From the NCBI GenBank assembly GCA_048213135.1, contig PS015309.1, positions 42,434-106,433 of the forward strand: a stretch of 64,000 nt of DNA, read 5' to 3'. The position numbers and the translations under genes were made by a program. Position 1 is the first letter of the stretch. Each line of letters begins with the position of its first letter. Below, in pieces: positions 1 through 64,000 of this stretch. The notes below the pieces were generated by a model. That model was given only the letters and a program-made list of their open reading frames with translations, was not told the origin of the DNA and did no database searches. This DNA is from Reclinomonas americana ATCC 50394 (Eukaryota).

Positions 1-951
1 GATGGACCACTGCTCGACTGCTGCTGCGGCGGCGGGTATCCGTAGCCGTAGGCACCTCCCGGGTACCCACCACTGTTGTAGGCATCGGCCGGCGGCGGCG
101 GCGGCGGCGGTGGCGCATGCTGCTGCTGGTGCGAGCCACCGCCGCTCATTGCGTGACCAAGTGCTGTGCGAAATCGCTGCAAGTCAACACGGAACCCTCT
201 CCACGGAGAAGAAACAACACAACACACACGACGCAACAGCTGCCGATGAGCGAGCCCACAGCTGCGGCTCCGGCCGTTTTCATCTGGGGTGCAAGAGGTG
301 AGCACCGCAGCACAGCATCTCTCTGCACTTGCAAAACTGCACGCAACAAGATCACTCGCGCCACTGCTGCTGCCGCCGCCGCTGCTGTGTGGCACGTATG
401 TGCTGGCGGGCGCCGCAGGCGCATGAGTCGACGAGGCCACTGGTGGATGTGGCACCGACGGCGCCGAGCTGGCCACCGGAGCCGGTCGTGGTGGCGGGGC
501 CGACGGTGCACTGGAAGCAGGTGCCGGCGCTCGTGCACCCGAATACGATGGACGCACTACGCTGCTGCCGGCCGCACTGCCACTGGGTGCCGCCAGCGGT
601 CTGTTGTTTATGCTTGTGTAAGTCGCCTTTTTTTCCGCATAGACACATCATCATCATCCAAAGCAACAGCACCTGCTGGCCGGCGCCGACGAATGGTGCG
701 ACGACGACGCGGATCCCATAGAGGAGGCGCCGTATGCCGGGCGTGGCCTGCGTGTGTGTGTGTGCGACGAGGTTAAACAACCACGCAATCACGCGTGCCT
801 CTGGCGAACACAACCAACAGCGACGCAACACTCCCGATCCCGAGCTGCTCTTGTTACTGTGCGTGTGTGTGTATGTGCGTGGAGCACGAGAGGTGAGTGT
901 GAGTGTGCGAGACGAGACAGGGGGAGAGTGCGGCAACGGCACGCACGTCAT
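1..951 (-). CDS. 5' part of a Pro/Gly/Tyr-rich protein of unknown function; continues beyond the window start
   Basis: Manual splicing: ATG AC|gtgcgt at 951, a 15-nt exon at 830-844, then exons giving MTSGSGVPRPAYGASSMG...APPPPPPPADAYNSGGYPGGAYGYGYPPPQQQ. No diagnostic domain is visible and the middle exons are uncertain. Confidence 0.5.
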
Positions 952-1033
952 TCTGCTCTCACAATCGTGGAATATAATATGATGAGTAAAAATAGCGGGG
1001 TGGATTTTCCGAGTCAAACTTGCATGCATGCAT

Positions 1034-3972
1034 ATGGCCGCCGCCTTCGCGCCCACGCCCGTCTGCGCATGGTGTGCTTACAGCTGACGGCGAATGCACC
1101 GTTGCAAGCGAGCGGTGTCAACGGCCGTGACGACAGCGAGCCGGCTGCCGACGACGACGACGATCGTCTCTTGCAAGAACTTGCATGCCACTGGCGCGCT
1201 CGTCACTAGTGCGTCTGCCTGTGTCCACAAAGCAACAGACTCCCTCTGTCTCTCTAACTGCAAGCACAGTGCGGGCGTGATGGATCTGGTCAGCGAGGCC
1301 CGCTGGCATGCGTGGGGTGCATCCGCGCGCCCGGCTCACCACTTGGCGCTGGCGTTCTTTGTGCTGGTACGCGCACGCTTGTGTGTATGTGTGCCTGCAG
1401 GCAGTTAACTTGCGAGACTCGCGCGCCCGCAGAGTGTGCTACGACTCCGCGGGATCGGCGCCGCACTGCAAATGGTGAACGCCTGTGGTCGCACGGATGC
1501 AGAGGACGACGTGACGCCGCCACACATGGTGCTGGAGGAGTCGATGCGGTTGCGGCTGCTGATATGCATCTGCGCGGCCAGTGGTCACGTCGTGCAATGC
1601 GGTCGTCTCCTCGAGCCACTGCTGCTGAGGGATGATGGCGCCGGCGATCCGCTGCTGTACTGGGCGGCGGCCAAGATGCACGCCACCATGGGCTGTGTGA
1701 ATGAGGCAGCGCGCTTTGCGGAGCTGTGCATCCGCCAGTGCCGAGAACGGTCGTACGCGTACGCAACGCCGGTGACGGTACCGCTCTTGTGCGATGCGGC
1801 CAGTGTGTTCGAGGTGGCTCCGGAGGGTGACTTGTCGTGGCAGTGCGTCGAAGCAGTGGATGTGATCACCACGCATGAGCGTGTGCACGCCGTCGCCAGC
1901 ATGCGCCGTCCACCACCTCTGTTTCGACCCGCGGAGGCTGACGTGCGCGTTGCCGACGATGGCATGCTGATGCAGCTGGTCATCGACGCGCTGATCTTGC
2001 TGGTGCGTGTGGTCCATCGCCTCGATGACAATGACACAGTCGACGACGTCGATGGGGATCTCGTGACTGTCGCTCTGCGGCAGCTTCACGTGTGGCAGCA
2101 GCAGTTAAGTAATCGTAGCGCTGTGTCTCGCGAGCCTTTTTGAGTCTGTGCTTACGTCTGTATCGTGACTGCAGGTGCAGCGGAGATGCAGAACTGGCGG
2201 CGACGGCGTCTCAGGCGGCACGACGCACCGCATTCAAGTTGCAGCTCTTCGGAACACGACAAGCGTTGCCGGCAATGAGTGTCGGTGGCCACGGTCGCGT
2301 ATCGTCGTCGCGTCGGCTGGCCATATTTGCTCGAAAACTACGGCAACGACTCGTGCGTGACAGCTTTTCGACCGCAGCCGGCGTTGCAAGGTGGTGCGCT
2401 CATGTCTTTCTATATTCAATGGCAGCAAACACGCAGCGAGACCACGGTGACGGAGTGGCGGGAGTGGATGCGGAGTGAGGACGTGCTTCCGTCGCCGGCA
2501 AGCTCCTCCTTGTCGCGACAGCCGCACTGGCTGTTTTCCGTGTGCCGACGAATGGGCGCAGCCACTTCACTGGTTGCGTCCGTCGTCGTTCCGGCGCTGC
2601 TAGTGGCACAGCAGTGGGATGACGCCGCGGATCTGTGCAAGCGCGTGCTCAGTGTGTCGCCAACGGACGCAGAGGTATGCATCCCACGTGGCACCGATCA
2701 TGACCTTTGCATTCTGACACATCGGGGCAGGCCTTGCTTTGCCTGCTCGTCGCATGCACACAGCCGACGGCAGCAGCTGCGAAAACGATCAGTCGATTGG
2801 ACAAGCTGGTCACGTTGAGGTGTGTGCGTGCAGCGTCACAACCTCGGATATCCCCCCTGCTCAGTGTTCGTGAGTGTTGTGGGAGAACAGTGAGCAGCTA
2901 TACGAATTGGCGCCCCACCTCTTTCGCGGATGGGAGCGTCGGTGGGCGCTGTGCAGAGGCCATCTGGCTGTGGGCGCCACTGTGCAGTTCTTGCGTCATG
3001 CTGTACCTCTCCGGCGGCAGTACTCGTCTGCAGAAGATGGCCGTCTGCGCATCAGAGACATACAACGGGAGCCGCAGACATTCGCAATGCGACTGGCGGA
3101 CAAGGTACGCACTCCTTTTCCCTTCTTCTTGTACGTACGTACGTATGCGCGCGACAAAATGACCATGGTCATCAACGCAGGCGACAACTGCGGAAGTGTC
3201 AGTCGAGCTTCATCAGTGCATGTGCAGTGCGTTGCTGGGCACTGGTCTGATTACCGATGGCCTCGTGTCACTTCGCTGGGCTCTGCTGGCGGCCTGTGAC
3301 ACCCTTCCCGACCTCACTACCACTCTGCTCCGCCGTCTGTGCGACTTGCTGACCGGCGGCAGTGTGGCGTCGCTGGCGTTGACCGAGCGTGCATTGCATG
3401 CGCTGGCTGTGCAGTACACGGGAGAGGGCGTGCGTCGTGCCGACAGTTTCGTGCGTGCCTGTCGTGAAAGGATTCCCACTGCGATATATATGCATTCATC
3501 ACGATGTTCTCTGTGCAGACGACAAGCTGCAGTGTTGGCGGCAACTGGCCGACGTTGCGCATGACCTGCGTGATGACGCAATGGAGACGGCTGCGCTGGA
3601 AGAGTGGCAGCGAGTTGCGCCGGACCGTCGTCGCGTCCATTTCATCCACAATACGTTCGCGCTGACCCAAGCTCTGTGCCGCAGCTGTCGCTCTCACCGT
3701 CACCTGCGATACACGAACGACTCTCGCGCTTGTATGCCACGCTCGGCAACTTTTCCGAGGCTCGTCGCCACGCTGCGCAGGCTGGTGTCGGACCTGCACG
3801 ACTGCTGGCCCTGGCACTGTGGGAGGCGCGTGCATCAATGCAACCCCCTCGCACCAACATCGCGTCCGCGATCCCCCACTCGTCGGCCATGACTGCCCTC
3901 CTCGAATCCGCGGAGTGGCCGACCGCGAGTACCGATACCGAAGTGCTACTCGCCGCCGGAGTCTTACAATAA
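1034..3972 (+). CDS. Hypothetical multi-exon helical (possibly TPR-like) protein
   Basis: Coding-biased ORF segments (1436-2103, 2175-2390, 2480-2674, 3181-3430, up to TAA at 3972) separated by short GT-AG introns. Helical motif LLVAQQWDDAADLCKRVLSVSPTDAE. Exact start and some junctions are uncertain. Confidence 0.5.
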
Positions 3973-4066: not shown

Positions 4067-7000
4067 TTATTCATTCTCTCTAATATTCGTGGATTGATCG
4101 GAACCTGCGCGCAAGGCAAACACAGTGTCGGCAAGTCGACCACACAGGCACAAACACAGGCCGTAGGCGTGCGACTCTCACCATGCCGAACGTGTTTGAC
4201 TGCGGTCTTGATCGCGCACTTGGCGATCTTGCGTGTATAATGGTCACCTCATCACCATCGTCGTCTGCGGGTACCGCGCAAAGTGAACAACCGAGGAGAC
4301 CAAGGAGAACGCGAGAATGGGGGACACGCACCGTCGCCCACATGTCGCAGTGCCATGTCACTCTCAAAGCCCATTCGAGCACCGTTTGCTCGCAACAACT
4401 GCACAAGTCAAGAAGCGTGAGAAGAGAGCGGGTACGACACCCGCAGAGAAATCGATGCATGACGCACATCAGCGACCTCGCTGTGATCCTGCCTGACGGC
4501 GTCGCTCAGCGGCGTGTGACCCCATCGATCGCGCGGATTCGGGTCGGCGTACTTGAGCAAGTAGCGAACCACTACCATGTGCAAACCAAAAGCTTGAGCC
4601 TCACACACGCACAAACACACACAAGCACACAAATTACCTTCCAACTCTCCAGTGCTGCGGTGGCCCGAGTGGTAAAGAATGAGAGAGACACACAGACACA
4701 CAACGTAAGCAGCAATCGAGAACGCGCCAAGTGCGTGCAGAGTGCCTCACCTGGCGGCCACATGCAGAGCTGTTCGACCATCCTCGTCGGGCATGTTCCT
4801 ACACCACACACGAGGTGAGCGCTTGTGCGCACAACAGATACACCATCCCACGAAAACAACGAACACATCGGCACCGCTGTTGACCAGTTGCTCCAATTCC
4901 TCCAGATCACCTGTGCATGCGATTGCATGAGCTTGACACAGCGCAGCGAATGTGAATCACAAATTCAGCAGCACACCTGTCGACGCCAACTGACACAACA
5001 AATCGACCATGCGTTGTGTCGCCTGGTTCAGAATGCGGACAATGTTGTCGTGATGCCGTCGTCTTGCATCATCCACGGCCATGCCTCCCCACCGATCCTT
5101 GACGTTGGGCGGCACACCAGCTGCATGCATGCATGTGAACAAGAGGCAGAAAGAGTAGTGCACTACAAGCAACAAGTGCACTTGCCTTCAAGGAGGAATT
5201 CGACTACCTCGACGTGTCCCTGCGCAGGTGTGTGGTACAGTGTCAACAAACCCAAACAAACGAAAAAAACGACACACGTGCAGGAACGAAACGTTGGCAG
5301 CTGCCAGATGCAACGCCGTACTGCACATATCGAAAACAACAATCGAGTGGTCAGACACAAATGCACAATCAATAGGTCACGTGAGTGCGCAAGTTTGTGT
5401 GCCACACCGTCCGTCACAATCCGGAACTGCAAGGCACCCACAGTGGTAGCAGTGAGTGGTGAGCAAGCAACGGGGAGGCACTTCTCAAAAAAAAGTGGAC
5501 GCACTGAAGAGAGCGCAAGTGCGCGACAGTGCCTGCAGCGTGTCCAGATCGCCGGAAGCACCGGCCTCGCACAGTTGTTCACCCTGCACCACGGTGTCAG
5601 TGGTAGGTTCAGTGTTTCACCGAGCAAGCCACAGGTGCGCACCAGATTCTGTGTTTCTGTCGACGCGCCCTTGCTGATCATCCACTCGGCCACATCGTGA
5701 TGTCCGGCACGCGTGGCAAGTGCCAGCGGTGTCATGCCTGCTCGGTCGACCACATTAATGTTCGAAGTTGGCAGACTGACCAGGTACTCGAGGACATTCT
5801 GGTGTCCATTCGCTGCCGCCAAGTGGTACGCCTGGCGGTCGAGTTGTGGAATGAGACCAACACCCGTCCATATCGTCACCAACTGAGGGNNNNNNNNNNN
5901 NNNNNNNNNNNNNNNNNNNNNNNNNNNNNNNNNNNNNNNNNNNNNNNNNNNNNNNNNNNNNNNNNNNNNNNNNNNNNNNNNNNNNNNNNNNNNNNNNNNN
6001 NNNNNNNNNNNNNNNNNNNNNNNNNNNNNNNNNNNNNNNNNNNNNNNNNNNNNNNNNNNNNNNNNNNNNNNNNNNNNNNNNNNNNNNNNNNNNNNNNNNN
6101 NNNNNNNNNNNNNNNNNNNNNNNNNNNNNNNNNNNNNNNNNNNNNNNNNNNNNNNNNNNNNNNNNNNNNNNNNNNNNNNNNNNNNNNNNNNNNNNNNNNN
6201 NNNNNNNNNNNNNNNNNNNNNNNNNNNNNNNNNNNNNNNNNNNNNNNNNNNNNNNNNNNNNNNNNNNNNNNNNNNNNNNNNNNNNNNNNNNNNNNNNNNN
6301 NNNNNNNNNNNNNNNNNNNNNNNNNNNNNNNNNNNNNNNNNNNNNNNNNNNNNNNNNNNNNNNNNNNNNNNNNNNNNNNNNNNNNNNNNNNNNNNNNNNN
6401 NNNNNNNNNNNNNNNNNNNNNNNNNNNNNNNNNNNNNNNNNNNNNNNNNNNNNNNNNNNNNNNNNNNNNNNNNNNNNNNNNNNNNNNNNNNNNNNNNNNN
6501 NNNNNNNNNNNNNNNNNNNNNNNNNNNNNNNNNNNNNNNNNNNNNNNNNNNNNNNNNNNNNNNNNNNNNNNNNNNNNNNNNNNNNNNNNNNNNNNNNNNN
6601 NNNNNNNNNNNNNNNNNNNNNNNNNNNNNNNNNNNNNNNNNNNNNNNNNNNNNNNNNNNNNNNNNNNNNNNNNNNNNNNNNNNNNNNNNNNNNNNNNNNN
6701 NNNNNNNNNNNNNNNNNNNNNNNNNNNNNNNNNNNNNNNNNNNNNNNNNNNNNNNNNNNNNNNNNNNNGCATAAACACAAACACAACACGCACAAGTATG
6801 CGACAACGTACCGATCACGCAAAAAGTACACCGAAAAATACGACGCCACGCCCACGACGGCACCGATGCCCATTGCTGCGCCTGTGAGAGTGCGATATGT
6901 TGTTGCACATGAGAACCGGGTTGCACATTGACAGCAAGATCAAGAAAAGGCGCACCCGCAGACACGTAGCCACAGCCGGGTGTGATGCCTGCAAGACCGG

Positions 7001-9039
7001 CAAGCGCACCTGCGACAGACAGACGTCAGGCACAACATCGGCACCAACAAGCAAGTGAGAACACGAGCAGCGCACCATTCAAGATCTCCGTGATGTGGAA
7101 GTAATCAGTTCTGTGAGAGCACAACTTGAGCATCAGCATGCATCCGCGAAAAAGCGCCGATTGTTTACGCACCTGATGTACGCCAGAATGAGCCACACGA
7201 GGCCGGAGACACACGCCGAGACATGTGTATTGAGAGCTGTGTCGCATGCGGTGAGTGCGGAACACTCTCGTATACTGTTTTCACGCACACAACAAACGCA
7301 CCTGCTTGTACTGCGATCTTGTCGGCACGGTATGCCGAGCCGCCGTTAAAGGAGAACCACGCGGCCCAGGACAAGCACCCACCAACGACTGGAGATAAAC
7401 ATCGCAGTGAGAGTCGCGCGACAAAGGCGAGCGAAAGAGTATACAAGCGTACCAGTGAGCTGTGGAAATGCGCGGAAGAAACACACAGAACATGGGGCAG
7501 GTTAGTTGAGGTCACGTCACACACACACACACACACCGAGACAAGTGCACGCACGGGAATGTTGTGCGCTGCATGCAATATGATGTGAGCTACGCAGCCA
7601 CCAACATACAACAACGATGACGGCACGGTGTGGCGACGCAACGTCCATTGTTGTACTCGTCGAGCTCGGGTCTCCGCTCCAGCATGAGTGAAACCACCAG
7701 GGCTGACATGCCTGATGCCGTGTGGATTCTGTGAAATGCATGGAAGGCAACATGCGCAGTAGATGTTTTTGAGTACACATTCTCCTCAAGACAACACACT
7801 GGCCAGAGACGCAACGGAAAGCCGCCACCAAAGTCGAAAACGCCCCATCTGTCCCCACGGTTGTCAACTCTTGCGACAGCAGCAACAGGACCTTCTCGCA
7901 GCGTAACTGTTGCAAGAACCCGCCACCCCAGAGCGAATGCGCCACGGGGTAGTACACCAGAAGCGGGAACAGCACGCAGAACATGATGAAGGCCTTGAAA
8001 TGCAGCTTCTCCGCCTGCAGATGCGCGCATTGAGCATCGCACCCACCGCGATAGATGGCGCTCACAACACGACAAACCCAAGCGCCTGTACATAACACTG
8101 GTACGACGGCGGCAAACTGTAAGTGGAAGCTGGCAAACATGAGGCCGGGGATGGTGGGCGCTGTGTGACCGATCGACGGGATCACGATCGTAAGCAACGT
8201 GAGCCCGTGAACGGTACGGGCGCACACAACACACGCACCTGACTTGTAACATCGGTAGGTCTCGCGCAGGAGGACGTGATCCAACGATCCAATAATGCCC
8301 CAGTGATCCTCACCGACTGCGCAGCAGCACAGTCAGTTGCAGAGCACCGAGCAATGCACACCCACTCTCCAACGAAACAGGTTAATGAGTAGCCGATGCT
8401 GCAGCGTGGGAACACAACGCGTCGCGAATGAGGTACACGTGACTGACACGATGGATGCGTGCGTGTGACAATCCGACGCAGCACGCAACAGACACCACAT
8501 GATGCCGCCGATGACGACGCCCGTGAGAGACTGCATAAGCATGTTCAACCTGCACACAGCGAGAGACACAGAGAGGGGAGTGAGAGAGCGAGAGAGTGGG
8601 GAAGTGTGAGTGAGCGAATGTGACACAAATGGTGGTGCATCAGCAGCAGCGCAACGAGTTGTTGCGTCGAATGATGCCGGCTTGTGTAAGACCAACGCTG
8701 TGAGTGAGCGAACAACTGGACGTGAGACGACGCAAGCAGAGGCACGGGTCGAACGGCGATGACAATGACGAAACGCTGGCGACTGCAACATGACCTGTGT
8801 GTGTGTGTGCGCGTGTGCAAGTGGTTGAGTACACCATTGAGAGAGAGATTCGTGCAGCACTCAACGCACCATGGCAGAGCTGACCAACATCCACGCTGCG
8901 ATGAGACACGCACACACACAATCATCGATCATAAGAAGAACGAGCAAGCTGCAGCAGCAATGTGTTCTTGGCGGCAGCCACATTGCATACCAATGTCGCC
9001 GTCATCCAAGGCGCAACCGTTCTCATCGAGGCCATCCAT
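4067..9039 (-). CDS. amt: Amt/Mep-family ammonium transporter with probable C-terminal ankyrin-repeat domain (interrupted by the gap at 5890-6768)
   Basis: Spliced translation: DDGDIAWMLVSSAMVMLQSPAVGLTQAGIIRRNNSLNMLMQS...IGYSLTFG...YYPVAHSLWGGG...DFGGGFPIHTASG...HNIPLTVVGGCLSWAAWFSFNGGS...NGALAGLAGITPGCGYV. After the gap, on the same strand, ankyrin repeats (DCDGRTALHLAAANGH, DEDGRTALHVAASTG, DRWGHTPLSDA) end at TAA 4067. Continuity across the gap is inferred, and the start could lie further upstream. Confidence 0.85.
5890..6768. other. Assembly gap (others at 35232-35576, 41552-41699, 42584-42687, 44891-45163, 48882-49226, 53658-53677, 59537-59556)
   Basis: Runs of N. Confidence 1.
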
Positions 9040-9712: not shown

Positions 9713-16650
<6,938 letters not shown>

Positions 16651-42485: not shown

Positions 42486-42522
42486 ATGTCGAGATCAGGG
42501 CCACGCTCGGTGTACAGTTGCG

Positions 42523-42565
<43 letters not shown>

Positions 42566-46701: not shown

Positions 46702-49700
46702 ATGAGCTCGAAACCGCGTCGCGTCTCCACCGGAGGTGCTTCCATGTCCAGTGCGCGTTCTGCCACGTCCTCTTCCACAACTACCACCACCACCACAACC
46801 ACCACAAGACGTCGTCCACAACAAGCCTCCTCCTCTGCGGCTGCTGCTGGTGCCTCTTCTCCTGCTCCTCCACCACCTCCTCCTCGTTCACAAGCCGAGT
46901 CTGCGTCACACATTGCGGCCTCGCTCATTGTGCGTCTTCCTCTCCTGCGTGTGTGAGAGCAGAGATTGAGCATCTATCTGACTGTTGCCACACAACAGTG
47001 TGACAAGGCTCAGGAGCGCTCACTGGAGAAGATCTACGATCTGGATCTGCGCGACTGCAAGCTGACCACGAGTCGAGGGCTGGAGAAGGTCTCCTTTCGC
47101 TGACTTGTCTCATCACTGGGGGGAGTTTCGACTCATATCAGCATCATCTGTGCAGTGTGTTCGTCTGAAGAAGCTCGACTTGTCGCACAATGAGCTGGAG
47201 GTGCTGGAGGGACTGCAGGAGTGCACTGATCTGCGCGAGTTGCGCGCCACTCGCAATCTACTGCGTGCCTTGTCGGGCTTGGAAAAGTGCGCTGCTGTTG
47301 TCGTCGTCGTCGTCTGTCGGCTTGTCGGTGGTGATGAGCACTCACACCGTGCACTCACAGATGCACCCGACTGACGGCACTGTATGTGGCGGATAATCGC
47401 ATCGCGGCGTTGGATGACAGCCTGCGTGCGTGCGAGACGCTGACGACGCTGTCGATGCCAAACAACGTGTTGACGGCGTTGGATCAGCGATGGTTTGAGA
47501 CGTTTAGGCCGGTGTTGCAGACGCTGGATATCTCGGGGAACGCGTTCGGCACTGGTGACACGGGTGGAGTGCTCAGATTACCGCGCAGTGGCTTCCCCGA
47601 GTTGCGGACGTTGCATGCCAACAACAATTCTGTCGGTGAAGTGCGTGGCTTGTCGGTGTTGCCGGCGTTGGAGGAGTTGCTGCTGCGGTACAACCGTCTG
47701 GTCTCCTTTGCCGGCGTCTCCAATCTCGACAAGTGTGAGCGGCTGACTCGTCTGGATCTCACCGGCAACCAGCTGGTGGGCATGGAGTTCTTCCCGCCGT
47801 CAATGCCGGCTCTGACCGAGCTGCTGTTGGCGCGCAACAAGCTGGCCGGCAGTGTGCGTGAGGCGCTGCGTGTCATTGCTGCGGCTTGTCCGAGAGTGGA
47901 GGTGTTGGAGTTGGATCGCAATCTGCTCGAGAGCGACGGTCTTGCGCCCTCGACCTACCTGCTGGAGCTGCAGCCGTTGGCGTCGCTCGCCGAGTTCTCG
48001 CTGTTTGAGAATCCGTGCATGGAGGTCGTCGACCCGGTGCAGTTTCGTGTGGGTGCGATGGAGAGCAGAGAGTTGTAAGGGTGTGCCGACATGCTGTGTT
48101 TGTCACAGGTTTGTGGAGACGGCCATGCTGTTGCTGCCGACGGTCGACACAATCGACAAGCTGCCCGTCCGTCCAATTGGTGATCAACCGGCCGCGGCGC
48201 CCAACCAGGACTACGGCCTGCAGCTCACCAGCCTCGATGAGTTGGAGCGGGAGCTGGAGTCGCTGATGCGTACAGATGGCGAGGGTTCATCGTCGACACC
48301 ACGCGCACAAGGCACCTCCCGGCGACCGCCAGTTGGGCGACCGGGCTCCGCCTCGGGTGGCCGTCCGGGCTCGGCGGGTGGTCTTCGCAGACCACAGACA
48401 CCGGGAACCAGTGTGCCGACCACAGCTTCAGGTGTGTGTGTGTTTGTGTATGTGAATGGAGTTTGAGTGGTGTGGGAGTGTGCTCATTTGATGGGTGTTG
48501 TAGGTCGACCAATTCTACGCGCAGTCAACTCGCGCCCAGTCAACGTGTACCGAACAGTGTCCACCGATGCTGTCATGTCGGCGGTGAAGGAGCTGCGGCG
48601 GGAGATGGATTCGATCACCAATCGCTACCTCGAAGTGTTTGAGTCGCTGGAGAAGAAGGCCACAAGTGCGTTTGACATTCTCGTACTCCTTTCATTCGAT
48701 CGTCATCCTCATTCTTTTGCGTGTGTGCAGTTATTAATGACAAGGCCATGGATTCGGTGCGCTCGCTGTCGTCTGCCGACGGTTCGCCGTCGTCCAAGGC
48801 CAGCGTGCGACCGCCCTCTGCTGCCTCGTCGGAAGTGGCTGCGCTTGCCGATCCCGGTTCAACAACGTTCCTCACGACACTNNNNNNNNNNNNNNNNNNN
48901 NNNNNNNNNNNNNNNNNNNNNNNNNNNNNNNNNNNNNNNNNNNNNNNNNNNNNNNNNNNNNNNNNNNNNNNNNNNNNNNNNNNNNNNNNNNNNNNNNNNN
49001 NNNNNNNNNNNNNNNNNNNNNNNNNNNNNNNNNNNNNNNNNNNNNNNNNNNNNNNNNNNNNNNNNNNNNNNNNNNNNNNNNNNNNNNNNNNNNNNNNNNN
49101 NNNNNNNNNNNNNNNNNNNNNNNNNNNNNNNNNNNNNNNNNNNNNNNNNNNNNNNNNNNNNNNNNNNNNNNNNNNNNNNNNNNNNNNNNNNNNNNNNNNN
49201 NNNNNNNNNNNNNNNNNNNNNNNNNNCACCGGCAGCGAAGAGGAAGAGGAGCGACCGCGTACGGCCAGCGCACGTCCACGCTCGCGGCTGGAGGAGGCTC
49301 GTTCCGCCTCCCGTGTGCTGTACGGCAAGCAGAGTGGCGCCGCCGAGGCAGCGCTGTCGGTGCGACCGGGTACGGCTGGCGGTTCCGGCTCGCGTCCTGG
49401 GTCGTCGGCCTCGGCCAGTCGACCGTCCACTGCCGACAGCGCCGGCGGCGCTGCGGTGAGTTTCGGTGACCTGTTTGCCAAGCCCGCGGTCGCAGCAGGA
49501 GGAGCGGGAACACGTGCACGGCGGACACCGTCGCCACCGTCACTGGCAGTGCGCAAGTCGGCGGCAGCGGCGGCGGCGGCTTCTGGCAGTGGCCGGTTAC
49601 CGTCGTCGTCGTTTGCCGAAGACGCGCATTCGGACTCGTCGTCTCTGTCGTCGCTGGATGAGGAGCAGGAGGCGGCGTTGCAGGCGCGCATGGGCGACTG

Positions 49701-52763: not shown

Positions 52764-53637
52764 TCACACCCCCAATGACAGGCGCGTGAACTGCGAAAAG
52801 TCGACACGCGTAGCATCACGCAGCGTCGCCACCAGCTCCTGCAGCTCTTCCGCATTGCACAAGAACTGCACACCGCCCTCCGACGTCTCCAGCTCAATCG
52901 TGTACAACTGCAGTCCGCAGTGAGCGCGCCTCCACACACCTGCACGCCAAGCAAGCACACGCAAGCACGCAACTGGTCGCGCATCAATCGCCTGCGTCGA
53001 GTCACGCGTGTAGTGATCCAGTCGCCACCGCACACCACGCAGTTGCGGCAGTCCCGTCGTTCCCACCGCCGACAGCCGCTCACGAATCTGTGCCAGATGT
53101 GCATCAAAGGCCGACACCACCGCCGCCTGTCGCTCACCCGTCACACCCGCCTCCTCCAACGCCGATCTTTTTGTGTGTCTCCAAAAGATGAGCAACACGA
53201 ATTGATCCGAGCGCATCATCCACCAGACTCACCCCAGATCGAGTGAATGCACACTGCGCTTTGCCGCCTGTGTGTACAACGCCAGCAGTCCCGCATGCGC
53301 TGCCTTGACCAGCACTCTCTGCTCATCGCTCACACCTCCGCCTGTGCGTGAACATGTCAACACTCACACACACGCGCGCGCTCTCTCTCTCTCTATGCAC
53401 GCAACCCAACACATCCTCCAGCAGCTCGCCACGCGCAGCGGCCGACGAGGCCAATGCACGCGCCGAGGCCTCGGCCACTTGCCGCACATGCGCCGCACTG
53501 AGCGAGCTCAGTGTGACCAGCGCAGCACGCTGTGACTCACTGACCAGCGGGCCTCCTCCCGCCACTGATGCACCAGCTCCACCTACTGCTGCAGCAGCTG
53601 ACGATGATGATGAACCAGCGCCGGCTGCTGAGGCCAT
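52764..53637 (-). CDS. COMMD3: COMM domain-containing protein 3
   Basis: LPQLRGVRWRLDHY...VQFLCNAEELQELVATLRDA (COMM domain); N-terminal VKAAHAGLLALYTQAAK; 3 introns. Confidence 0.8.
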
Positions 53638-55384: not shown

Positions 55385-58300
55385 ATGAGCGGAGCGACGC
55401 GAGTTCGTCAACAACCACAACCTCATGTGCGCTCTCAATCGGCCTCATCGCCCACTTCCTCGGCGCGTCGCTCAGTGACCACAGTGTCGGCCTCACAACG
55501 CAACGCACGACCGACAGTTGCGTTTCTCACATGTCGCTTTCCAACCCCCGAATGCTCATCATCGCCAATTGCATCTTCTCCGCGCGCAGAGTGTGACGCG
55601 CGCGCATCCTCCACTCTCCCCCAAGTCCTCCACCCGAGTGGCACCGATCGCACCCGACGTCACTGTCACTCCCGGGCAGAAGAGACGGCCATCGTCGTCG
55701 TCCACCATCGAGGCCTCGTCGCCCTCGTCGCCGGCTTCTGCATCTGCGTCGATGGTGGCCGCAGTGGCGGCCGCGGCCACGCTGCGTCGATCGTCTCTGC
55801 AGTTGCCACTGGGAGCGCTGGAGAGTGCAGGACTCGGTAGCCAGTCGCCACGTTCGCCCTCGGCTCCGCCGTCGGCACGATCGCAGTGCGCCACCTTCCG
55901 CTACCACTCGCCCGATCACCGCGGAGGCGCGGCTGTGACGGCCCCCGTGCAGCCACCCATGTCGTCGCGATACGGGTCACCGTCGCACTCGCCGCGAGCC
56001 TCGCTGAGTGGAACGCTGTCGTCGAGCACCATGGCCGTCGCCCGCCGTCTCGGTGTCAATGTCGACGAGGCGCAGTTCATGGAGGTTTGTGGCAATGATC
56101 CCGACTCACGTAGTGCTGCACGCGAAGGAGAGGAAGACAGAGAGAGAGAGAGAGAGCTGTGCCACTGACCATGTTGTGCGTTGATAATGATCGTGATCGT
56201 CGGAGAATCCACCGAGGCTGGGCCACCGGCGTTGTGCTTTTGTTATCCTTCTCTCTCTGCATGCCATGCTCATCATGTTTGTTTGTGTTGGCGATAGGAT
56301 GTGCGCAAGACGGTGGTGCGGTTGAAGAGCTTGCCGAACAGCACGACCTACGTGGAGGATTCGGTGCAGTTTTTGGTCGAAGCCGCCAAGGAGAGCGACC
56401 ATCACCGAGTGATTATGCGTGAGCTGGGCACCTTGGAGGTGCTCGTCTCTCTGCTTCGTCACCACGGTACCAATGTCCAGTCGCTGGCCGCCGAGGCGCT
56501 GATGCTGCTTGGTGCGTGTGTGTTGTCCTCAGTTTCGCACATGCATGATTTGTCCGATCCTGAACCGATGCAATGTCGTCTTGTGTTGCAGCGAACAACA
56601 AGGGCAACCGCGACCGCATTCGCGAGGTCAATGGCATTCAGCCGCTCATTAATTTGCTGAGCAAGGAGTATGCGGTGTTGCCGGCCGCCATGGCGCTGCG
56701 CAATTTGTCTACTTCGTCGGAGAATCAGGTAAAGAAATGCCACTGCAGCACGTCTGATCCTTGTCGACTGTTGCTCATCAACCTGCGCCACAGCTCCGCA
56801 TCTACCAGTACGACGGCGTGGAGCCGCTCATTCGGCTGCTGCGACATGTGGATCCGCGCGTGCAGGAGCAAGCGGCTGCGGCCGTGGCCAACTGTGGTTC
56901 GCATTCTTGTCCCCAAGCGTGTGTGTTTGTGTGTGTGCTGCAGTCGACTCAAATCGATCGCCTTGTCGCACACAGCGGCCAACTCGACAAACCAGGGTCT
57001 CATTCGTGACCTCGGCGGCGTTCCACTGCTGGTGAACCTGCTGGCAATCAAGAACTCGCGCATTCAGCGACAAGCGGCCATGGCACTGAAGCACCTGGCC
57101 GGCAACGAGGTCAACCGCGACCTTGTGCGCGACGCCGGCGCTGTGCCGCTGCTGATCGCCATTCTGCACGAGGGCAAGACACGAGCCAAGGCCATGGCGG
57201 CTGGTGCGCTCGGATTCTTGGCCTACGGCGAGCAGGTTTGTGTTTCTGTGTGTCGTGTTCATGCCTGATCATCATCACTCGTGCTGAATCATACAATCGG
57301 CGGGCGCAGACTCGCGAGCTCATCCGCATCCACGGTGGCGTGGCACCGCTGTGTACCATGCTGCAGTCGAGCAACGTCGATTGCCTTGAGCAGGCCACCA
57401 CCTGCATTGTCAACGTTTGTGAGTACTCATTCATTCCCTTGTGTGCTGATCACTCGCTGGTGCTGTTGCTAACTGCTGCCGCCAATCGCCGAACAGCTCT
57501 GAACAAGACCAACCGCCACCTGATTCGCGAGTGCAAGGGCATCGAGAGCCTCATTCGCCTGTTGATGAGCTCGAACGCCACGGTGCAGGAGAATGCTGCG
57601 TGGGCGCTGAAGAACCTCGGTATGTGAATTCCCCTGTCAGTACGATGGCAAGCTCCTCCAGCATGACACTCATGCTTTGTCCCCCCTCGCAACAGCCATG
57701 ACACGCGCCAACCAGGACCACATTCGCGAGAATGGCGGCTTGGAGGTGATGTTGGACCTGCTGGAGACGGAGAATCACGAGCTGCTCTCACATCTGGTGT
57801 GGGGTCTCACCAATCTCAGTTGCGTCTCTATCTTTATTCTGTACCCATGGCCCTGTGACACGCCCGTGTATCTAGTTCTGACCGCTCGCTCGTGTATGCA
57901 GCCATCAACAAGTACAACCAAGACGAGATTCCGCGTCTTGACGGCATCCGCCCGCTGTTGCAGCTGCTGTCGCACGAGCGTGATGATGTGGTGGAGAAGG
58001 CCGCGTGGACGCTGACCAACCTGTCGGTCAGTGTGGAGAACCGCGACAAGATTCGTCTGGAGGGTGGCATTCCGCCCTTGATCACACTGCTGGCGCACCC
58101 GAACGCCAAGGTCAGTGCAGTGTTTGCGGGGACAAGGAGAGTCTCTCTGTGTTCTCCTCGCTGACTCTCTTTTGCAGTGCGTGGAGAAGGCGGTGGCCGC
58201 ACTCAGCAATCTGGCCACACGGAAGCCATGCCGCGAAGCCATTCGTAAGAACGGCGGCATTCCACCGCTGGTCGAACTGCTCGACTCGAACATTCCGGAG

Positions 58301-59635
58301 CTGCTGTGCGGGGCTGCCGGCACACTGGCCAATATGGGTGAGTGGCACGAGTCACGACTGTTGCATTGCACGAGGACACGCATCTCATCTCTGTGTCATC
58401 GTGTCTGTGTGCGCAGCGAGCAAGCACGATGTGAATCGCGAGGCAATCCGCGCCGAGGGAGCTGTCGGTCGCCTGTTGCAGTTGCTCGGTCACGTGGATA
58501 GCATGGTCCGCACCGAGGCGTTTGCCGCGCTGCGCAACCTGTCTCGTTGCGTTCACTCTGTCTGTCGTGTGCCAATGTGTTTACTCGGGGAAGCTCACCG
58601 ACCCGTGCCATGCGTGCAGTGGGTGAGGCCTTCAATCGCGCGCTGCAAAAGTTCGTCATGATCCCCGTCGGCCCCGACACGTTTGCCGAGTTGGGTCAGG
58701 CGGTGGCCGAGTATGAGCACGCCGCTGAGGATCTCGACGCGGCGGCGTTGTTGGAGATGCTGGTGGCACGGCATGGTGGTGAGTGTGATGATGATACACG
58801 CTGTCAGTGCCTGTTTGGCTTGTCTCACGATTGATTTGCAGGCACACCCGATCCACAATTGCTGGCCGAGTACCACCGCGTGGCGCAAATGCCAGCGCCG
58901 TCGACTGCTCAGCACTCTCGCTCTTTCTCCGACATCACCGGCACCACACTGTCGGTGCGCCCGGTGCCTCGTGACGACAGCCGACGTGCGTACCAGCTGC
59001 AGTACGCGCAGCAGCACCACGATTCGGTGTCGGTGCAGTCGGACAGTCCACCACGAGCGACCGTGACCAGCATTGATTTCCCCGAATCGTCGTCCACACC
59101 ACCACCACCTCCACCGCCACCACAGTCGGAATCAGCACGCATTGTGCAACCGCACCAGGGTGGCAGCCCACGCAGTGGGTCTGCTGGGCGACCACAGCCG
59201 GCGTCCTTCAATCTCCCGCAAGTGCCTGGCTCACGATGTGCGTGCCTCTCTCTCTCTCTCTCCCCCGATTGTCACATTCAACTGACGTTTGTTCAATGCA
59301 CAGCGTCACCGCCGCGCATCCCCAGCGCACCTGGCTCCACCTCGTCGCTCGGCATGAGTGACGACACGGGCGCTCACGACTTCGATCACGACAGCTCAGG
59401 CGACGATCTGGTGCGCTCGATCGCCCCACCACGGCAGTCAGCGTTCTCCACCCATACCACCACCACCACCACCACGACAACCACGGCTGCGGCGCCGCCC
59501 ATTGTGCCTCCACTGGTCGGCTGGGGAGCTTCATCGNNNNNNNNNNNNNNNNNNNNACACCCACCCACCATCATCACCACCGTCAACCCCTCTCAGCACG
59601 ACCACGCCAACGCAGGTCGTGCAATTTTGATATGA
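55385..59635 (+). CDS. Armadillo-repeat protein (Vac8/PUB-like ARM array) with disordered termini
   Basis: At least 10 ARM repeats (GIQPLINLL, GGVPLLVNLL, GAVPLLIAIL, GGIPPLITLL, GGIPPLVELL; AAWALKNL, AAWTLTNLS). First exon 55385-55516 is inferred. Final reading frame is uncertain because of the gap at 59537-59556. Confidence 0.85.
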
Positions 59636-59835: not shown

Positions 59836-62179
59836 ATGCTTCTCTTGCGCACATTGCGTCGCTCACTGGCACGTTCGTGTCATTGCTTTCGTCACTCCCA
59901 TCGCTTTTGTCTCACTCGTGCCACACAGTCGACGAGCAGCAATGTGATGCGCGACACGCCCGATGCCTTCCTGCAGAACGTGATGAAGCACAACGGATTG
60001 CATCGCGCCATGCTTGCATTTGATCACGAAACGCGTCGTGTGGTTCCCTCACATCCCGCGCTGCAAGTCGTCGCCGACTGGATGATGAATGACCCGGTGG
60101 ACTACAAGCAGGTGGGCTCAGCAACACATGCATGCATGCGTGAGTGTGTGTGCGAGAGAGAGAGATGCGCTGATTCTCTCTCTCTCTCCTCTGTCGCAGC
60201 ACGAGGCCATCTTCCTGGAAATCGGGCGAGAATCCGGTGCTCTTCTCGGCTCCTTCTTGTGGTGGACGAAGCGTGGTCAGGGTTGTGGTGGCATTCGCTA
60301 TCGCTCCTACACCAGGTTGGTGCTGTCTCCTGTCTCGTCCCTTCCTCTTTGTCTCTGTGGCTCACGAAGAATTGCAGCCTGGAGGAGTACCTGCGCGACG
60401 GCATGCGACTGGCCACTGGAATGGGCCAGAAGAGCGCCCTCGCCGGTCTGTGGTGGGGCGGTGGCAAAGGTATGTAGTCGAAGGTGGGGAGGGAGGGAGA
60501 GAGAACTTGTCCACGCTCGAGCTCATATCATGTGCCTGCTTGCAGGCGTCATTCCCATGCTGTCGTCGCACTCGGACAAGTTCCTCGACCGTGGATTCCG
60601 TGATGCGTTGTTCCGAGACTAGTTGAGTGGTGACAGCATTTCTCTGTGTTGCTTGACGTGCGCCGTGCCTCACTCTCGCTGCAGCGGTCGTTTCCTGACG
60701 GGCACACAGGGTGCCTACGTGGCTGCTGAGGATGCTGGTGTGCTCATCCCCACAGCTGCCTGCCGTGCGTGTCTCATGACTCACTTATGTGCTCGTGTGC
60801 ACAGGCGTCAACGTGGAAGACGTCGATGTGGTGTTCTCACAGACTCGTCACACGACGTGCATCTCACCGCGCCTGGGTGGCTCCGGCAACCCGTCAGTAC
60901 CCACAGCTCAGGTGACTCCCTGTGCGAGACAGGCGGTTTTTTTGCGATGCCTACTCAATTCGCCAACCGCCTGCGTACACGCAGGGCATTGTGTGTGCGA
61001 TGGAGGGTGCGCTGCAGTTCCTGAAGATGGGCAGTCTCGAAGGCAAGACTATCGCGGTTCAGGTCTGTGTCATGCTCGGCGTCACTATTTTGTACCACGA
61101 GTTGTTGTTGACGCGGTTCCACACACAGGGTGTCGGCAATGTGGGTCTGCCGCTGGTGGAGTTCCTGCTGGCCAAGGGTGTGAAGCGCATCGAGGCTGCC
61201 GAGACTGTGCCGCACCGACTGGAACAGGTGTGTCTGCAGCCGTGCTGGCGTCTCGCTCTCTCCGTCGTGCATCGTCTCTGACCGTGCACTCGCCACTGGC
61301 AGGCTGTGGAGAAAATCACCGACTCCCGCGTGCGATTCCGTCATGGTTGTTACTCCTCGCACTTTTTCTCCTGCATGCGCCATCGTGTGTTCTCATCAAC
61401 ACACAAACTATGCTGGGCAGTGACCACCAGCGACATGAGTATCTTGCACGAGGAGGTGGACATTGTGTCGCCGTGTGCCTTTGGTGGCGTCCTCAACCCC
61501 ACCACCATTCCTGGCATTCGGTTTGTGCGCTCTTGTGGCTCTCTACCTCAAACACGCGAGAACTTGACTTGCTGTGTACTGTAGGGCGAAGATTGTGTGC
61601 GGTGCGGCAAACAACCAGCTGCAGGATCCGCGGGGAGATGGAGAACTGGCGAAGCGCGGCATTGTGTACGTACCCGATTTCGTCGGCAACCGCATGGGCA
61701 TGTTGCGTGTGTGCAGCAGCGTGACCAGTTTCCTCTGTTTGTTTGTTCGTTGATCCTCACGTCACGCTTGTTGTACAGCGTGAACTGTGCCAATGAGCAG
61801 TACGGCTACGTGACACCGTCGTCGGAGGATCCGTCGTTTGCCCGTCACTTTGGTCGCGACTGGGAGGACTCGATCCAGAACACCACTCAGCGCGTTCTCG
61901 AGTTTCGTATGTGCCACACCCACTGTGCCGAGGCGCACACTCACTTCGCACTCTGTGATACAGGCTTGCCAAGCGCACTGGAACATCGCCGGCTGTCGCG
62001 GCCATTGTTGCGTCACTTTACTCACCCACTCACATACAGCTGCTTGGACTCATTGTTGCAATAACCAGTCGCTGGCCGACAAGGCCGCCAGCGTGCCGCA
62101 TCCGATTTGGGGCCACCGTGTGCGCCACATTATCGAGTCGCTGCGGAAGAACTCGTGGGCCAGCGCCGAGCGTTTGTGA
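59836..62179 (+). CDS. Glu/Leu/Phe/Val dehydrogenase family protein, probably mitochondrial
   Basis: GCGGIRY, MGQKSALAGLWWGGGKG, YVAAEDAG, GGSGNPSVPTAQG, IAVQGVGNVG, SPCAFGGVLN, VCGAANNQL, YVPDFVGNRMGIVN; Arg/Ser-rich N-terminus; ~13 introns. Confidence 0.9.
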
Positions 62180-62495
62180 CAAGTTACCCCATTTTTGTGG
62201 GAGAAATGACAACTCCGTGACGTGAGATTTGATTCCCCTGTCCGAGTGAAAGTAAGTGGAAGATTGGCGGACTGCTGGCGCGTGGAGAGAGCGAGAGCGA
62301 GAGAGATAGATAGTAGTGCCGCCACGTAGATCACCACTGCCGTCGCTCGAGTGCTTGGGGACCTAGTTCGCCGTGTCAGCGTGGTTTGCTCTCGTCACTA
62401 GTATCTGGGAGGACAGTGGGAGTGCTAGTAGAGGCCACAACGGTAGAGAATCAACAGCTGGTGCGACTGCGGCAGTAGAGGGAGAGCTGTCAATC

Positions 62496-64000
62496 ATGGG
62501 GCACTCGGAATCCAAGTCGGCGCGTGGTGAGGCTATCGTGTTTGGCGAGGTTTGTGCTGTGGGTGTACTGTGTTCTCGGTGGCCGGAACACGTCTCACCA
62601 GTCGTGCACAGGAGGGTGCCGGAAAGAACGAGCTGCTTCACATCGCAACGGTGCGTCTTTTGCTTGTCGTGTGAGGGGCCGGCGATCAACTTTTTCACCA
62701 ACATGGAATCGTTTTGTTTTTCTCCAGCGGCTTTACACCAACACTCCACTCAAAGTCGAAGCCGAGCGACATGGGCGTCTGCTCTTCAGTGAAGTGAGTT
62801 GTCGTCTCAGTTGCCGCGCCCCTTTCTCCCCTGCCGAGCTGACAAGGGCACACGTGTGGCAGGAACTCGTGGTGAAGCACGGAAGCGAAACCACCAAGAT
62901 TCTCTGGGTCTGCATCTCATGTTGTTGTTGTTGTTATCATTGATCTCCCTGCCCGTTACTCACGCATGCACGCACTGTACTCTCAGTGGAATACGGGCGA
63001 TTGGACGCACTTCTTCTCTGGCATGTCTGCCACGCAGAAGAAAACGTTCTTCTCGTCGGATCGGCGCTGTTATGTGATCGTGTACAGGTGAGTAATAATT
63101 ATTCCGAATGCATTTTGTGATCCCCAGTTATGACTGACCAGTGGATGGGGTGAACCAGCGTGACAAGTCGCCGTACATTCAATGCGGTGCATCAGGTATG
63201 CGGTTTGAATGCGAGGCGCGGGAGGGTCATTCATTCACTGACAATTCGGCGATGGCTGTTTTGCAGGTCATTCAGTGCCTCCGCCATTTCCAGAGTGGCC
63301 GCGGTGCTGCGCCGGTGCTGGTGGTTGGCACTGGAGTAGAGTGCGAAGTGGTTGGGCGAGAACGAGAAGTATCGAAAGAGGAAGCCATTGTTGAGTGGTC
63401 TGCTTTCGTGCTCGCAGCCTCACACGCTGACACTTACAGCATCGTTCGTCGCGCAGATGTTTGCACAGCAACACCACGCGCTATACATGGAATGTTCCGT
63501 GGTCACTGAGTGGCACGCGGAGCTTGTTATCCAAGTGGCAAGTTCCATCGGCATTCAGTGCAAGTTTCGTTGGCTTTGATTTGAGGGAGACCGTGCTGTG
63601 TGTGTGACACTAACCGAATGTCACAGCGGTCGACACGGACCCCTTGATGCGAAATCGGTGATTGCTGAGGCGCTGCGGGAAAACATTCCTGCCGATTCCG
63701 TGGTGCCCGTTGAGGTGCCTGCAGCGGGCTCTGCACAGCAAGCGCCGGTCGAAGCCCTCGTCGGTGGTGCGCACCCACACATGCAATTGATTATAGCTTC
63801 TTCGCTCACACGCATCACGTTTGCAGTGCCGGCCGTGCACGACCAGGGCTCCGTGTCTGACTCCGAGAATGTGTACATGGGGTCGAACTACACGCCGTGC
63901 CGAGCGGCATACGCGTTCATTGTCGACAACGAACGAGAGGAGATACCGGAGGGCTTTGTGGCCATCGAAGAGCTGCGCGCGCTCTATGTGTATCGCTCAA
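62496..64000 (+). CDS. Degenerate Ras-superfamily GTPase-fold protein with N-myristoylation motif; continues beyond the window end
   Basis: Spliced MGHSESKS...IVFGEEGAGKN...ILWWNTGDW...YVIVYSVTSRRTFNAV...PVLVVGTGVE...REVSKEEAIMFAQQHHALYMECSV. Confidence 0.7.

Follow-up and report, generated by a model that had tools for sequence, protein, structure and literature searches.

How does a spliceosome find the start of an intron when the conserved G of the donor stands one base too far downstream? The question is raised by 64,000 nucleotides (nt) of the genome of Reclinomonas americana ATCC 50394 (assembly GCA_048213135.1, contig PS015309.1, positions 42,434 to 106,433, forward strand), the whole of which is called the window below; it has a G+C content of ~59%, is interrupted by eight runs of N, and carries very numerous short introns. 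In addition to ordinary donors with G at the fifth intron base (+5), an initial annotation of the window listed 47 donors of the form GTTNNG, in which the G lies at +6 (hereafter, the class), and took them for a second major kind of 5' splice site. Our analysis points the same way and leads us to favor the reading that these are 5' splice sites of U2-type GT-AG introns recognized one base out of register, a reading that we consider probable although by no means certain. Below we ask, in turn, whether the donors are real, how common they are, which register they follow, and what could read them.

All 47 listed donors do begin with GTTNNG on the strand given for them (31 with GTTGCG, 26 with GTTGCGT). 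Their use as splice sites was assessed by homology-only spliced alignment, that is, a GeneWise-like alignment of profile hidden Markov models, built from database homologs, to the genome, in which an intron had to start with GT or GC, end with AG and measure at least 35 nt, with no donor motif and no length prior; before the full alignment, every in-frame GT/GC..AG junction was scored around the gaps between matched fragments. Homologs were available for four genes: Amt (found in a representative library), a Na/K-type P-type ATPase (up to 65% identity), NAGLU (up to 53%), and Mot1 (at most 37% identity over more than half of the query, and up to 45% over a third). Protein database searches returned no near-identical proteins, and the best match in a metagenome scan shared 59% identity. 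The alignment found 52 introns in Amt (15), the ATPase (22) and NAGLU (15). Mot1 was aligned over its conserved C-terminal part and its introns are not totalled, and in its weakly conserved stretches the aligner skips insertions as "introns" (e.g., at 31340, 32621, 33180, 33581, and 33947), rows that are left uncounted; a 231-nt Mot1 row at 31939 (GTTCCGGC) is likewise left out of the class counts. Two ~150-nt "introns" of the pairwise scan, at 8867 and 8469, were rejected, each being two introns in the full alignment (micro-exon places).

Sixteen of the 22 listed donors in these four genes were recovered in this way (6 of 7 in Amt, 4 of 6 in the ATPase, 4 of 4 in NAGLU, and 2 of 5 in Mot1), and forbidding a recovered donor cost the alignment between 1.6 and 14.7 bits, 13 of the 16 costing 4.8 bits or more. 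As for the six that were missed, the alignment does not extend to 11790, 29012 and 35169; at 11936 there is a tie with a GC donor lying 3 nt downstream; and at 7642 and 32129, in weakly conserved sequence, a single long intron was chosen instead. The earlier placement of the cut at this GT, argued from conserved residues, holds at the junctions concerned: CAA is preferred over CGA by 4.2 bits at the Mot1 HRIG-Q junction, TTC over TGC by 5.0 bits at the Amt junction at 8378, and AAC over AAG by 3.7 bits at the NAGLU junction at 39531. A cut moved one base later at both intron ends, which alters a single codon, was never better and lost 24.8 bits summed over the 9 informative sites of the 16. 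On the evidence of these protein alignments, the class donors are confirmed as real and as cut at the listed GT. The recovered introns are as follows (here and below, a slash separates the last three exon bases from the intron, the donor of a minus-strand intron is at the second coordinate, and cost is the loss on forbidding the donor).

8698..8774 (-), Amt intron, donor agc/GTTTCGTC, homology-only alignment, cost 5.5 bits; also used by the gene finder
8550..8655 (-), Amt intron, donor ctc/GTTGCGCT, homology, cost 11.0 bits; beats the GC 3 nt downstream by 5.7 bits
8399..8489 (-), Amt intron, donor tct/GTTGCGTG, homology, cost 8.2 bits
8317..8378 (-), Amt intron, donor cct/GTTTCGTT, homology, cost 13.7 bits
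7849..7907 (-), Amt intron 5' of a 33-nt exon, donor aca/GTTACGCT, homology, cost 13.5 bits
7729..7815 (-), Amt intron 3' of the 33-nt exon, donor tcc/GTTGCGTC, homology, cost 8.2 bits
40741..40804 (-), NAGLU intron, donor act/GTTGCGTC, homology, cost 4.8 bits
39833..39906 (-), NAGLU intron, donor act/GTTGCGGA, homology, cost 11.0 bits; TAC over TGC by 5.8 bits
39458..39531 (-), NAGLU intron, donor caa/GTTGCGTG, homology, cost 14.7 bits
38790..38857 (-), NAGLU intron, donor gtg/GTTGAGTA, G at -1, homology, cost 8.8 bits
12084..12152 (+), P-type ATPase intron, donor att/GTTGCGTG, homology, cost 11.0 bits; beats the GC 3 nt downstream by 5.6 bits
12259..12328 (+), P-type ATPase intron, weakly resolved, donor aac/GTTGCGTG, cost 2.1 bits; GC at 12262 better by 1.2 bits without the GC penalty
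13199..13274 (+), P-type ATPase intron, donor att/GTTGCGTC, homology, cost 3.9 bits
16223..16290 (+), P-type ATPase intron, donor ttc/GTTGCGTT, homology, cost 6.7 bits
31716..31776 (+), Mot1 intron, weakly resolved, donor ttc/GTTGCGTT, homology, cost 1.6 bits
34396..34475 (+), Mot1 intron in the helicase motif HRIG-Q, donor gcc/GTTTCGTC, homology, cost 9.2 bits

The 33-nt Amt exon between two class introns (7816-7848, minus strand) codes for part of the conserved WGVFDFGGGF. The best-matching Amt relative (P0361) aligns as a single stretch across a presumed intron (query 9-95 against its positions 98-199), while all other matches align in two; the single stretch may reflect a read-through gene call in the relative or a real insertion.

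It could be argued that the sites have been mis-annotated, being either GC-AG introns that begin 3 nt downstream (GTT/GCGT) or artefacts of hand splicing and of self-reinforcing models. The two ATPase sites at which the GC donor does better, by 1.2 bits at 12259 and, despite a 4-bit penalty, by 0.2 bits at 11936, are in line with this, as is a real GC-AG intron in the same gene at 12578. At the other five of the seven testable sites, however, GT is preferred over the GC at +3, by 5.6, 2.7, 6.2, 9.4 and 5.7 bits at 12084, 16223, 39906, 39531 and 8655, respectively, and 16 of the 47 listed sites (GTTTCG, GTTACG, GTTGAG, and GTTAAG; hand count) have no GC at +4/+5 at all. Further, the sole convincing GC donor reads AAG/GCAAGA, unlike GCGTGN, and the class appears both by homology alone and in a gene finder that is blind to the donor motif (below), so that we regard mis-annotation as very improbable. 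The GC-AG intron itself, picked by homology alone, spans 12578-12641 (+), from AAG/GCAAGA to TAG, with a margin of 6.2 bits in the scan and 3.3 bits after the GC penalty.

Larger intron sets were obtained with two gene finders. A self-trained finder with a first-order donor model predicts 186 introns and recovers 20 of 26 homology-verified introns; its filtered set, in which exons passed a strand filter, is kept apart here from its raw (unfiltered) parse. The profiles described below compare 40 class donors with 108 canonical donors, i.e., those with G at +5, both from the self-trained set, and the corresponding homology-only comparison is of 16 class with 30 canonical donors. The donor-blind finder takes GT, a length prior, an acceptor matrix and coding statistics as its only inputs, recovers 11-14 of the same 26 introns, and was used for motif enrichment only. 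Of the 47 listed sites, 34 serve as donors in the filtered set of the self-trained finder and 42 do so in its raw parse. The five outside the raw parse are 35169, 41470 and 42517, whose acceptors lie in N runs (as the initial annotation had already said of the latter two), together with 7815 and 7907, which flank the Amt micro-exon and are fixed by homology. Five further class candidates (237, 24375, 30082, 32614, and 48042) were added by the finder. The introns predicted in the filtered set, in addition to those listed above, are:

2104..2180 (+), predicted intron, donor gca/GTTAAGTA, self-trained gene finder only
5220..5292 (-), predicted intron, donor aac/GTTTCGTT, gene finder only
11790..11857 (+), predicted intron at the ATPase N-terminus, donor att/GTTGCGTG, gene finder only, beyond the homology alignment
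11936..12000 (+), predicted ATPase intron, donor att/GTTGCGTT, gene finder; homology prefers GC at 11939 by 0.2 bits after the 4-bit penalty
17395..17474 (-), predicted intron, donor gga/GTTGCGCC, gene finder only
18968..19062 (-), predicted intron, donor gaa/GTTTCGTG, gene finder only
20592..20660 (+), predicted intron, donor aag/GTTACGTG, gene finder only
21128..21198 (+), predicted intron, donor aga/GTTGCGTG, gene finder only
21379..21447 (+), predicted intron, donor caa/GTTGAGCA, gene finder only
26128..26194 (-), predicted intron, donor gct/GTTGCGTG, gene finder only
26486..26553 (-), predicted intron, donor aca/GTTGCGTG, gene finder only
29012..29091 (+), predicted intron in the poorly conserved part of Mot1, donor tca/GTTGCGTA, gene finder only
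32129..32203 (+), predicted Mot1 intron, donor cca/GTTGCGTG, gene finder; homology took a 231-nt intron instead
36494..36575 (+), predicted intron, donor cca/GTTGCGCA, gene finder only
52908..52973 (-), predicted intron, donor cca/GTTGCGTG, gene finder only
53342..53405 (-), predicted intron, donor tgg/GTTGCGTG, gene finder only
57819..57901 (+), predicted intron of an armadillo-repeat gene, donor tca/GTTGCGTC, gene finder only
58546..58619 (+), predicted intron of the armadillo-repeat gene, donor ctc/GTTGCGTT, gene finder only
60622..60684 (+), predicted intron of an amino-acid dehydrogenase-like gene, donor cta/GTTGAGTG, gene finder only
61702..61778 (+), predicted intron of the dehydrogenase-like gene, donor cat/GTTGCGTG, gene finder only
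61902..61963 (+), predicted intron of the dehydrogenase-like gene, donor cga/GTTTCGTA, gene finder only
62007..62068 (+), predicted intron of the dehydrogenase-like gene, donor att/GTTGCGTC, gene finder only
63564..63626 (+), predicted intron, donor caa/GTTTCGTT, gene finder only

The remaining listed sites and the further candidates are:

55517..55589 (+), weakly supported, donor aca/GTTGCGTT, raw parse only, a flanking exon having failed the strand filter
63390..63468 (+), weakly supported, donor att/GTTGAGTG, raw parse only
748..829 (-), weakly supported, donor agt/GTTGCGTC, raw parse only
7569..7642 (-), weakly supported, Amt, donor gac/GTTGCGTC, raw parse; in the alignment it replaces a 224-nt intron from 7612 when that is forbidden, at a cost of 2.1 bits
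22206..22271 (-), weakly supported, donor gcc/GTTGCGTG, raw parse only
35169..35175 (+), listed motif, caa/GTTTCGTG, acceptor would fall in the N run 35232-35576
41470..41476 (+), listed motif, caa/GTTACGCA, acceptor would fall in the N run 41552-41699
42517..42523 (+), listed motif, aca/GTTGCGAT, acceptor would fall in the N run 42584-42687
164..237 (-), further candidate, gct/GTTGCGTC, gene finder
24304..24375 (-), further candidate, gtt/GTTGCGTT, gene finder
30082..30163 (+), further candidate in Mot1, gca/GTTGCGTG, gene finder
32614..32691 (+), further candidate in Mot1, ggc/GTTGCGTG, gene finder; homology used 32621..32731
48042..48108 (+), further candidate, gca/GTTTCGTG, gene finder

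These donors are common and exceed what the composition of the window would yield. The first estimate, made by hand, of a fifth to a quarter of all introns agrees with the 40 of 186 introns (21.5%) of the self-trained set and the 14 of 52 resolved by homology; in the donor-blind set the class makes up 27 of 187. T at +3 and G at +6 without G at +5 characterize those 14 of the 52 introns of Amt, the ATPase and NAGLU, compared to 49 of 990 sense-strand GT sites (binomial p 1.6e-7). Even when the finder is blind to the motif, GTTGCG is its commonest donor hexamer (19 of 187), and of the 54 GTT donors in that blind set 24 carry G at +6 followed by T at +7, a pair present in 100 of 1413 GTT words that are not donors (Fisher 3.5e-13). 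In intronic GTT words, G stands at +6 in 35 of 180. The heptamer GTTGCGT occurs 39 times in the window, counting both strands, and 26 of these occurrences are listed donors.

The profile of the class reveals what kind of donor it is. The canonical consensus here is (C)AG/GTGCGT(G), with G at -1 in 85 of the 108 donors, G at +3 in 73, T at +6 in 74 and G at +7 in 54; at +4, C (45) is preferred, T (31) and A (28) follow, and G (4) is nearly excluded. The class consensus is (C)A/GTTGCGT(G), with G at +4 in 29 of the 40, C at +5 in 35, T at +7 in 35 and G at +8 in 16, no G at +5, and A, T, C and G at -1 in 17, 13, 7 and 3, respectively. Compared at the same position, the two differ strongly at -1 (p 6e-14), +4 (p 2e-18) and +7 (p 7e-14). 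Compared with the canonical position one base upstream, they agree throughout: class -1 with canonical -2 (p 0.38), -2 with -3 (p 0.56), +4 with +3 (p 0.10), +7 with +6 (p 0.13), +8 with +7 (p 0.73), and +9 with +8 (p 0.58). From -2 to +9, that is, the class profile is indistinguishable from the canonical profile moved by one base. In other words, CAG/GTGCGT and CA/GTTGCGT are one nine-base word whose fourth base changes from G to T, cut at whichever GT exists. Within this shared word the class is stricter than canonical donors at the remaining positions (C at +5 in 35 of 40 vs. C at canonical +4 in 45 of 108; in the homology-only set, 15 of 16 vs. 14 of 30 by hand count from the donor words), as would be expected if the stricter positions compensate for a mismatch.

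The most telling part of the profile is the exon end. The exon-end G (-1) is present in 3 of 40 class donors vs. 85 of 108 canonical ones (Fisher 1e-15), in 1 of 16 vs. 27 of 30 by homology alone, and in 3 of the 47 donors first listed (20592, 38857, and 53405). GTT donors that have G at +5 keep the G at -1 in 11 of 14 cases, and therefore T at +3 alone is not the cause of its loss. The donor model of the self-trained finder has one exon-side distribution for all donors; the split at -1 is therefore no product of the finder. 

Two further observations concern donors of the window at large. In most eukaryotes +3 is nearly always a purine; here, T stands at +3 in about 22 of the 52 homology-fixed donors (Amt 6769-9500, ATPase 10800-17000, NAGLU 37500-41500; hand count), and eight of these T+3 donors are in the canonical register and keep G at -1 (GTTCGT, GTTAGT, GTTTGT, GTTTGC, GTTGGT, and GTTGGC). 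Separately, four homology-fixed donors lack G at both +5 and +6, namely 40579 (aag/GTACTCAT), 13543 (ctg/GTGATTTT), 14529 (gag/GTACAAAC) and 38106 (acg/GTGAATCC), with margins of 10.0, 16.6, 24.9 and 3.7 bits, respectively, and G at -1 in all four.

The exon end also bears on the closest relative of a register shift, a bulged-U register in which the exon end and G+1 would pair canonically with U1, U+2 or U+3 would be looped out, and pairing would resume at G+4. From +4 onward its pairs are the same as in the shifted register, and the intron-side statistics fit both equally well. Bulges at +2/+3 are also on record in humans, at 68 of 201,541 sites (Tan et al. 2016, Table 3, PMC4856993). The three class sites with G at -1 (20592, 38857, and 53405) may use such a bulge, and AAG/GUUACGU is modelled to pair most stably with a bulge (-4.5 vs. 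-1.4 kcal/mol shifted). For the class as a whole, however, a bulge predicts that G at -1 is favored, the opposite of the counts just given; class -1 and -2 track canonical -2 and -3 rather than -1 and -2; and the bulge is most stable with a standard U1 in only 2 of the 40 class sites. Given that G at -1 is almost absent and that -1/-2 follow canonical -2/-3, we therefore favor a shifted register over a bulged U, which we consider unlikely as the general explanation. The initial annotation had treated "shifted" and "bulged" pairing as one proposal: the routine use of a displaced register by this lineage appears to stand, while the merging of the two does not, since the loss of G at -1 separates them.

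How, then, would a shifted register work? Under the favored reading, U1 small nuclear ribonucleoprotein (snRNP) would bind the word one base downstream of its usual position, so that G+1 pairs with C9 of U1 in place of the exon-end G, U+2 opposite C8 forms a mismatch, and U+3 to U+7 pair as canonical +2 to +6 do, with A-1 and C-2 pairing with U10 and G11 of U1. The catalytic spliceosome (U6, U5, and Prp8) would then cut at the sole GU, one base upstream of the junction implied by the U1 helix. After the departure of U1, U6 would pair with G+6/U+7 across one extra base, or would pair poorly. Three parts of this scheme are inferred, namely the reading of the shifted word by U1, the tolerance of U6 for the extra base, and a U1 end that is standard or nearly so; a plain register shift needs no variant small nuclear RNA (snRNA). 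A search of the 64-kb window with Rfam returned no family at gathering thresholds and no snRNA even at E<=1. The sole match of any kind at E<=1, to the mir-3149 model at 55306-55378 (+), scored 30.2 bits against a gathering threshold of 100 (E 0.12) and is read as chance.

The standard U1 5' end reads ACUUACCUG. Pairing energies were computed with a nearest-neighbour duplex model, in which the textbook U1 5' end follows the sequence given by Tan et al. 2016. With this end, the U1 of the organism itself possibly being different, 21 of 40 class sites pair best in the shifted register, and that register is most stable or tied in most class sites with every U1 end modelled (21 of 40 with the standard end, 37 and 29 of 40 with hypothetical ends).

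Several points weigh against our interpretation, the first of them energetic. With textbook U1, class medians are -0.6 kcal/mol in the shifted, -0.3 in the bulged and 0 in the canonical register vs. -6.7 kcal/mol for canonical donors; 17 of the 40 class sites have no register below zero; and the nearly obligatory C at class +5 sits where standard U1 pairs best with A. Others concern the sets themselves. Every intron is inferred from homology or from a gene model, with 16 class sites based on homology and the larger sets taken from a self-trained finder, which found 20 of the 26 introns verified by homology. The GTTGCG sites at 12259 and 11936 are inseparable by homology from the GC donor 3 nt downstream, and the sense-to-antisense ratio of GTTGCGT, 21 to 3, relies on the strand map of the self-trained finder, with 15 occurrences outside the count.

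The weak pairing with textbook U1, together with the nearly obligatory C at +5, therefore keeps a diverged U1 5' end a live possibility. Here, the class would be read either by a single U1 adapted to GUGCGU, for example with G, or G and C, at positions 5 and 6, whose shifted helix would be strong in spite of the mismatch, or by a second U1 isoform dedicated to the class, changed at position 8 and pairing with U+2; the cut would still be made at GU. The class is predicted to be almost unbound by textbook U1 (median -0.6 kcal/mol). When a hypothetical U1 end is modelled as the complement of GUGCGU, the class median becomes -6.2 kcal/mol, 37 of 40 sites pair best in the shifted register, and canonical donors reach -9.2; when position 8 is hypothetically changed, the class reaches -4.0 kcal/mol and the shifted register is the best one at all 40 sites. 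At class +5, C is close to obligatory in both sets, a base with which a pseudouridine at U1 position 5 would not pair, and the order C>T>A>G at canonical +4 would, on our reasoning, be expected opposite G rather than opposite pseudouridine and may point to a change at U1 position 5. Conversely, a dedicated isoform with perfect pairing would not need a stricter consensus elsewhere in the class, and A is also enriched at canonical +4 (28 of 108). Moreover, the U1 5' end is, to our knowledge, among the most conserved of eukaryotic RNA sequences, and in GC-rich genomes base composition by itself can raise the frequency of G at +3 and of C at +4, as in GC-rich algae with a standard U1. Taking these together, we view a diverged or duplicated U1 as a minority alternative, clearly less probable than the plain register shift. 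In its most specific form, which we put forward tentatively and as equally short of probable, U1 binding and the cut would be uncoupled in about one fifth of introns: with G as its N, the word CAG-N-UGCGU would be cut behind CAG, and with U as its N, behind CA. This would be made possible by a U1 end that has come to match GUGCGU through the changes at positions 5 and 6 named above, and whose helix survives the mismatch at position 8.

Apart from their donors, the class introns resemble the canonical ones. Their acceptors are CAG in 40 of 40; the branch-site-like word CTNAY stands between -45 and -7 in 34 of the 40 class introns and in 71 of the 108 canonical ones; and the median length is 73.5 nt in the class vs. 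71 nt in the canonical set. The U12-type branch word TCCTTRAY was looked for and found in none of the 40 class and none of the 108 canonical introns, and no RTATCCTT-like donor was found. When the interiors of the 186 predicted introns were compared with each other, 21 hits of 15-25 nt resulted, by eye mostly of low complexity, and none joins two class introns. With no U12 branch word and with unrelated interiors, the class is therefore neither of the minor spliceosome nor a mobile-intron family; judging from these sequence features, it most likely consists of ordinary U2-type GT-AG introns. A mobile family (introner-like elements) with a fixed GTTGCGT start had some appeal, given that this single heptamer opens 22 of the 186 predicted introns, but the absence of interior similarity between any two class introns, and lengths and 3' ends like those of the canonical introns, make it the most improbable of the explanations considered.

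Introns in the window are short and uniform in general: most of those fixed by homology measure 59-80 nt, the predicted ones average ~71 nt (standard deviation ~9), and CAG is the 3' end of nearly all of them. Some have a length divisible by three and contain no stop, and hence form open frames (e.g., 63 nt at 8015-8077). GTGTGTG and CTCTCTC occur 227 and 116 times, respectively, on the two strands, by eye mostly in introns and intergenic DNA, and these GT/CA and CT/GA repeats are the source of the only intron-to-intron similarities found.

How do these donors compare to known systems? Human shifted-register sites number a few dozen, and their original report is said to be that of Roca and Krainer in 2009; bulge-register 5' splice sites were reportedly described by Roca et al. 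in 2012. The shifted register has been shown experimentally at human sites, where every pair between the 5' splice site and U1 is displaced by one, the cut is at GU and the canonical match is poor (Tan et al. 2016, PMC4856993), as appears to be the case here; an example in Table 2 of the same paper, ACA/GUCAAGUAUA, has the exon-side CA/ seen at many sites of the window. The human sites are a rare exception, whereas the class accounts for about one fifth of introns here; the word here is GUUGCGU vs. GUNAAGU there, with U+3 paired here; and the case here is made from sequence alone. Human bulge +2/+3 sites share with the class the GUU donor, the conserved G one base downstream and identical intron-side pairing, but keep the exon-end pairing whose G is lost here (PMC4856993). 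In the register table of that paper, bulge +2/+3 accounts for the 68 of 201,541 human sites cited above, and all curated non-canonical registers amount to 2.1% of human sites (Tan et al. 2016).

There is also precedent for a cut that does not follow the U1 helix. The choice of the cut site can be independent of the exact position of U1 (Kramarek et al. 2024, PMC11162779): at the tandem donors of STAT3 exon 21 the cut is uncoupled from U1 position, and U6 has been proposed to pair in a non-canonical register. That case, however, is one regulated 3-nt tandem site in one human gene, as opposed to a 1-nt offset with a sole GU, constitutive and in many genes, as proposed here. U12-type introns, finally, are likewise a second, sequence-distinct class of introns within one genome, yet they differ by their RTATCCTT-like donor and by TCCTTRAY, which is absent here (0 of 40), whereas the class has the 3' ends and lengths of the major one. 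A literature search, with subscription papers and supplements outside its reach, turned up no lineage reported to rely on shifted or bulged donors as a major class, and a word search for GTTGCGT/GUUGCGU returned primers and unrelated text only. While the mechanism is a known exceptional one, our results suggest that it serves here as a constitutive second class in about one fifth of introns.

Non-canonical U1 registers at a few human sites explain odd disease mutations and weak-looking donors. If the interpretation favored here, a U1 register shifted by one base, is correct, the register would be an evolvable property at the level of the lineage rather than a tolerated error, and dozens of natural substrates per 64 kb would be available for work on how U6, U5 and Prp8 determine the scissile bond with U1 one base off. 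It would also mean that gene finders trained on a single donor matrix mis-call these junctions, the wrong alternatives often lying 3 nt away and in frame. If instead the U1 5' end has diverged, Reclinomonas americana would offer a rare exception to a near-universal sequence and, should U1 binding and the cut indeed be uncoupled in this way, a natural system in which the register of the 5' splice site is separated from the choice of the scissile bond.

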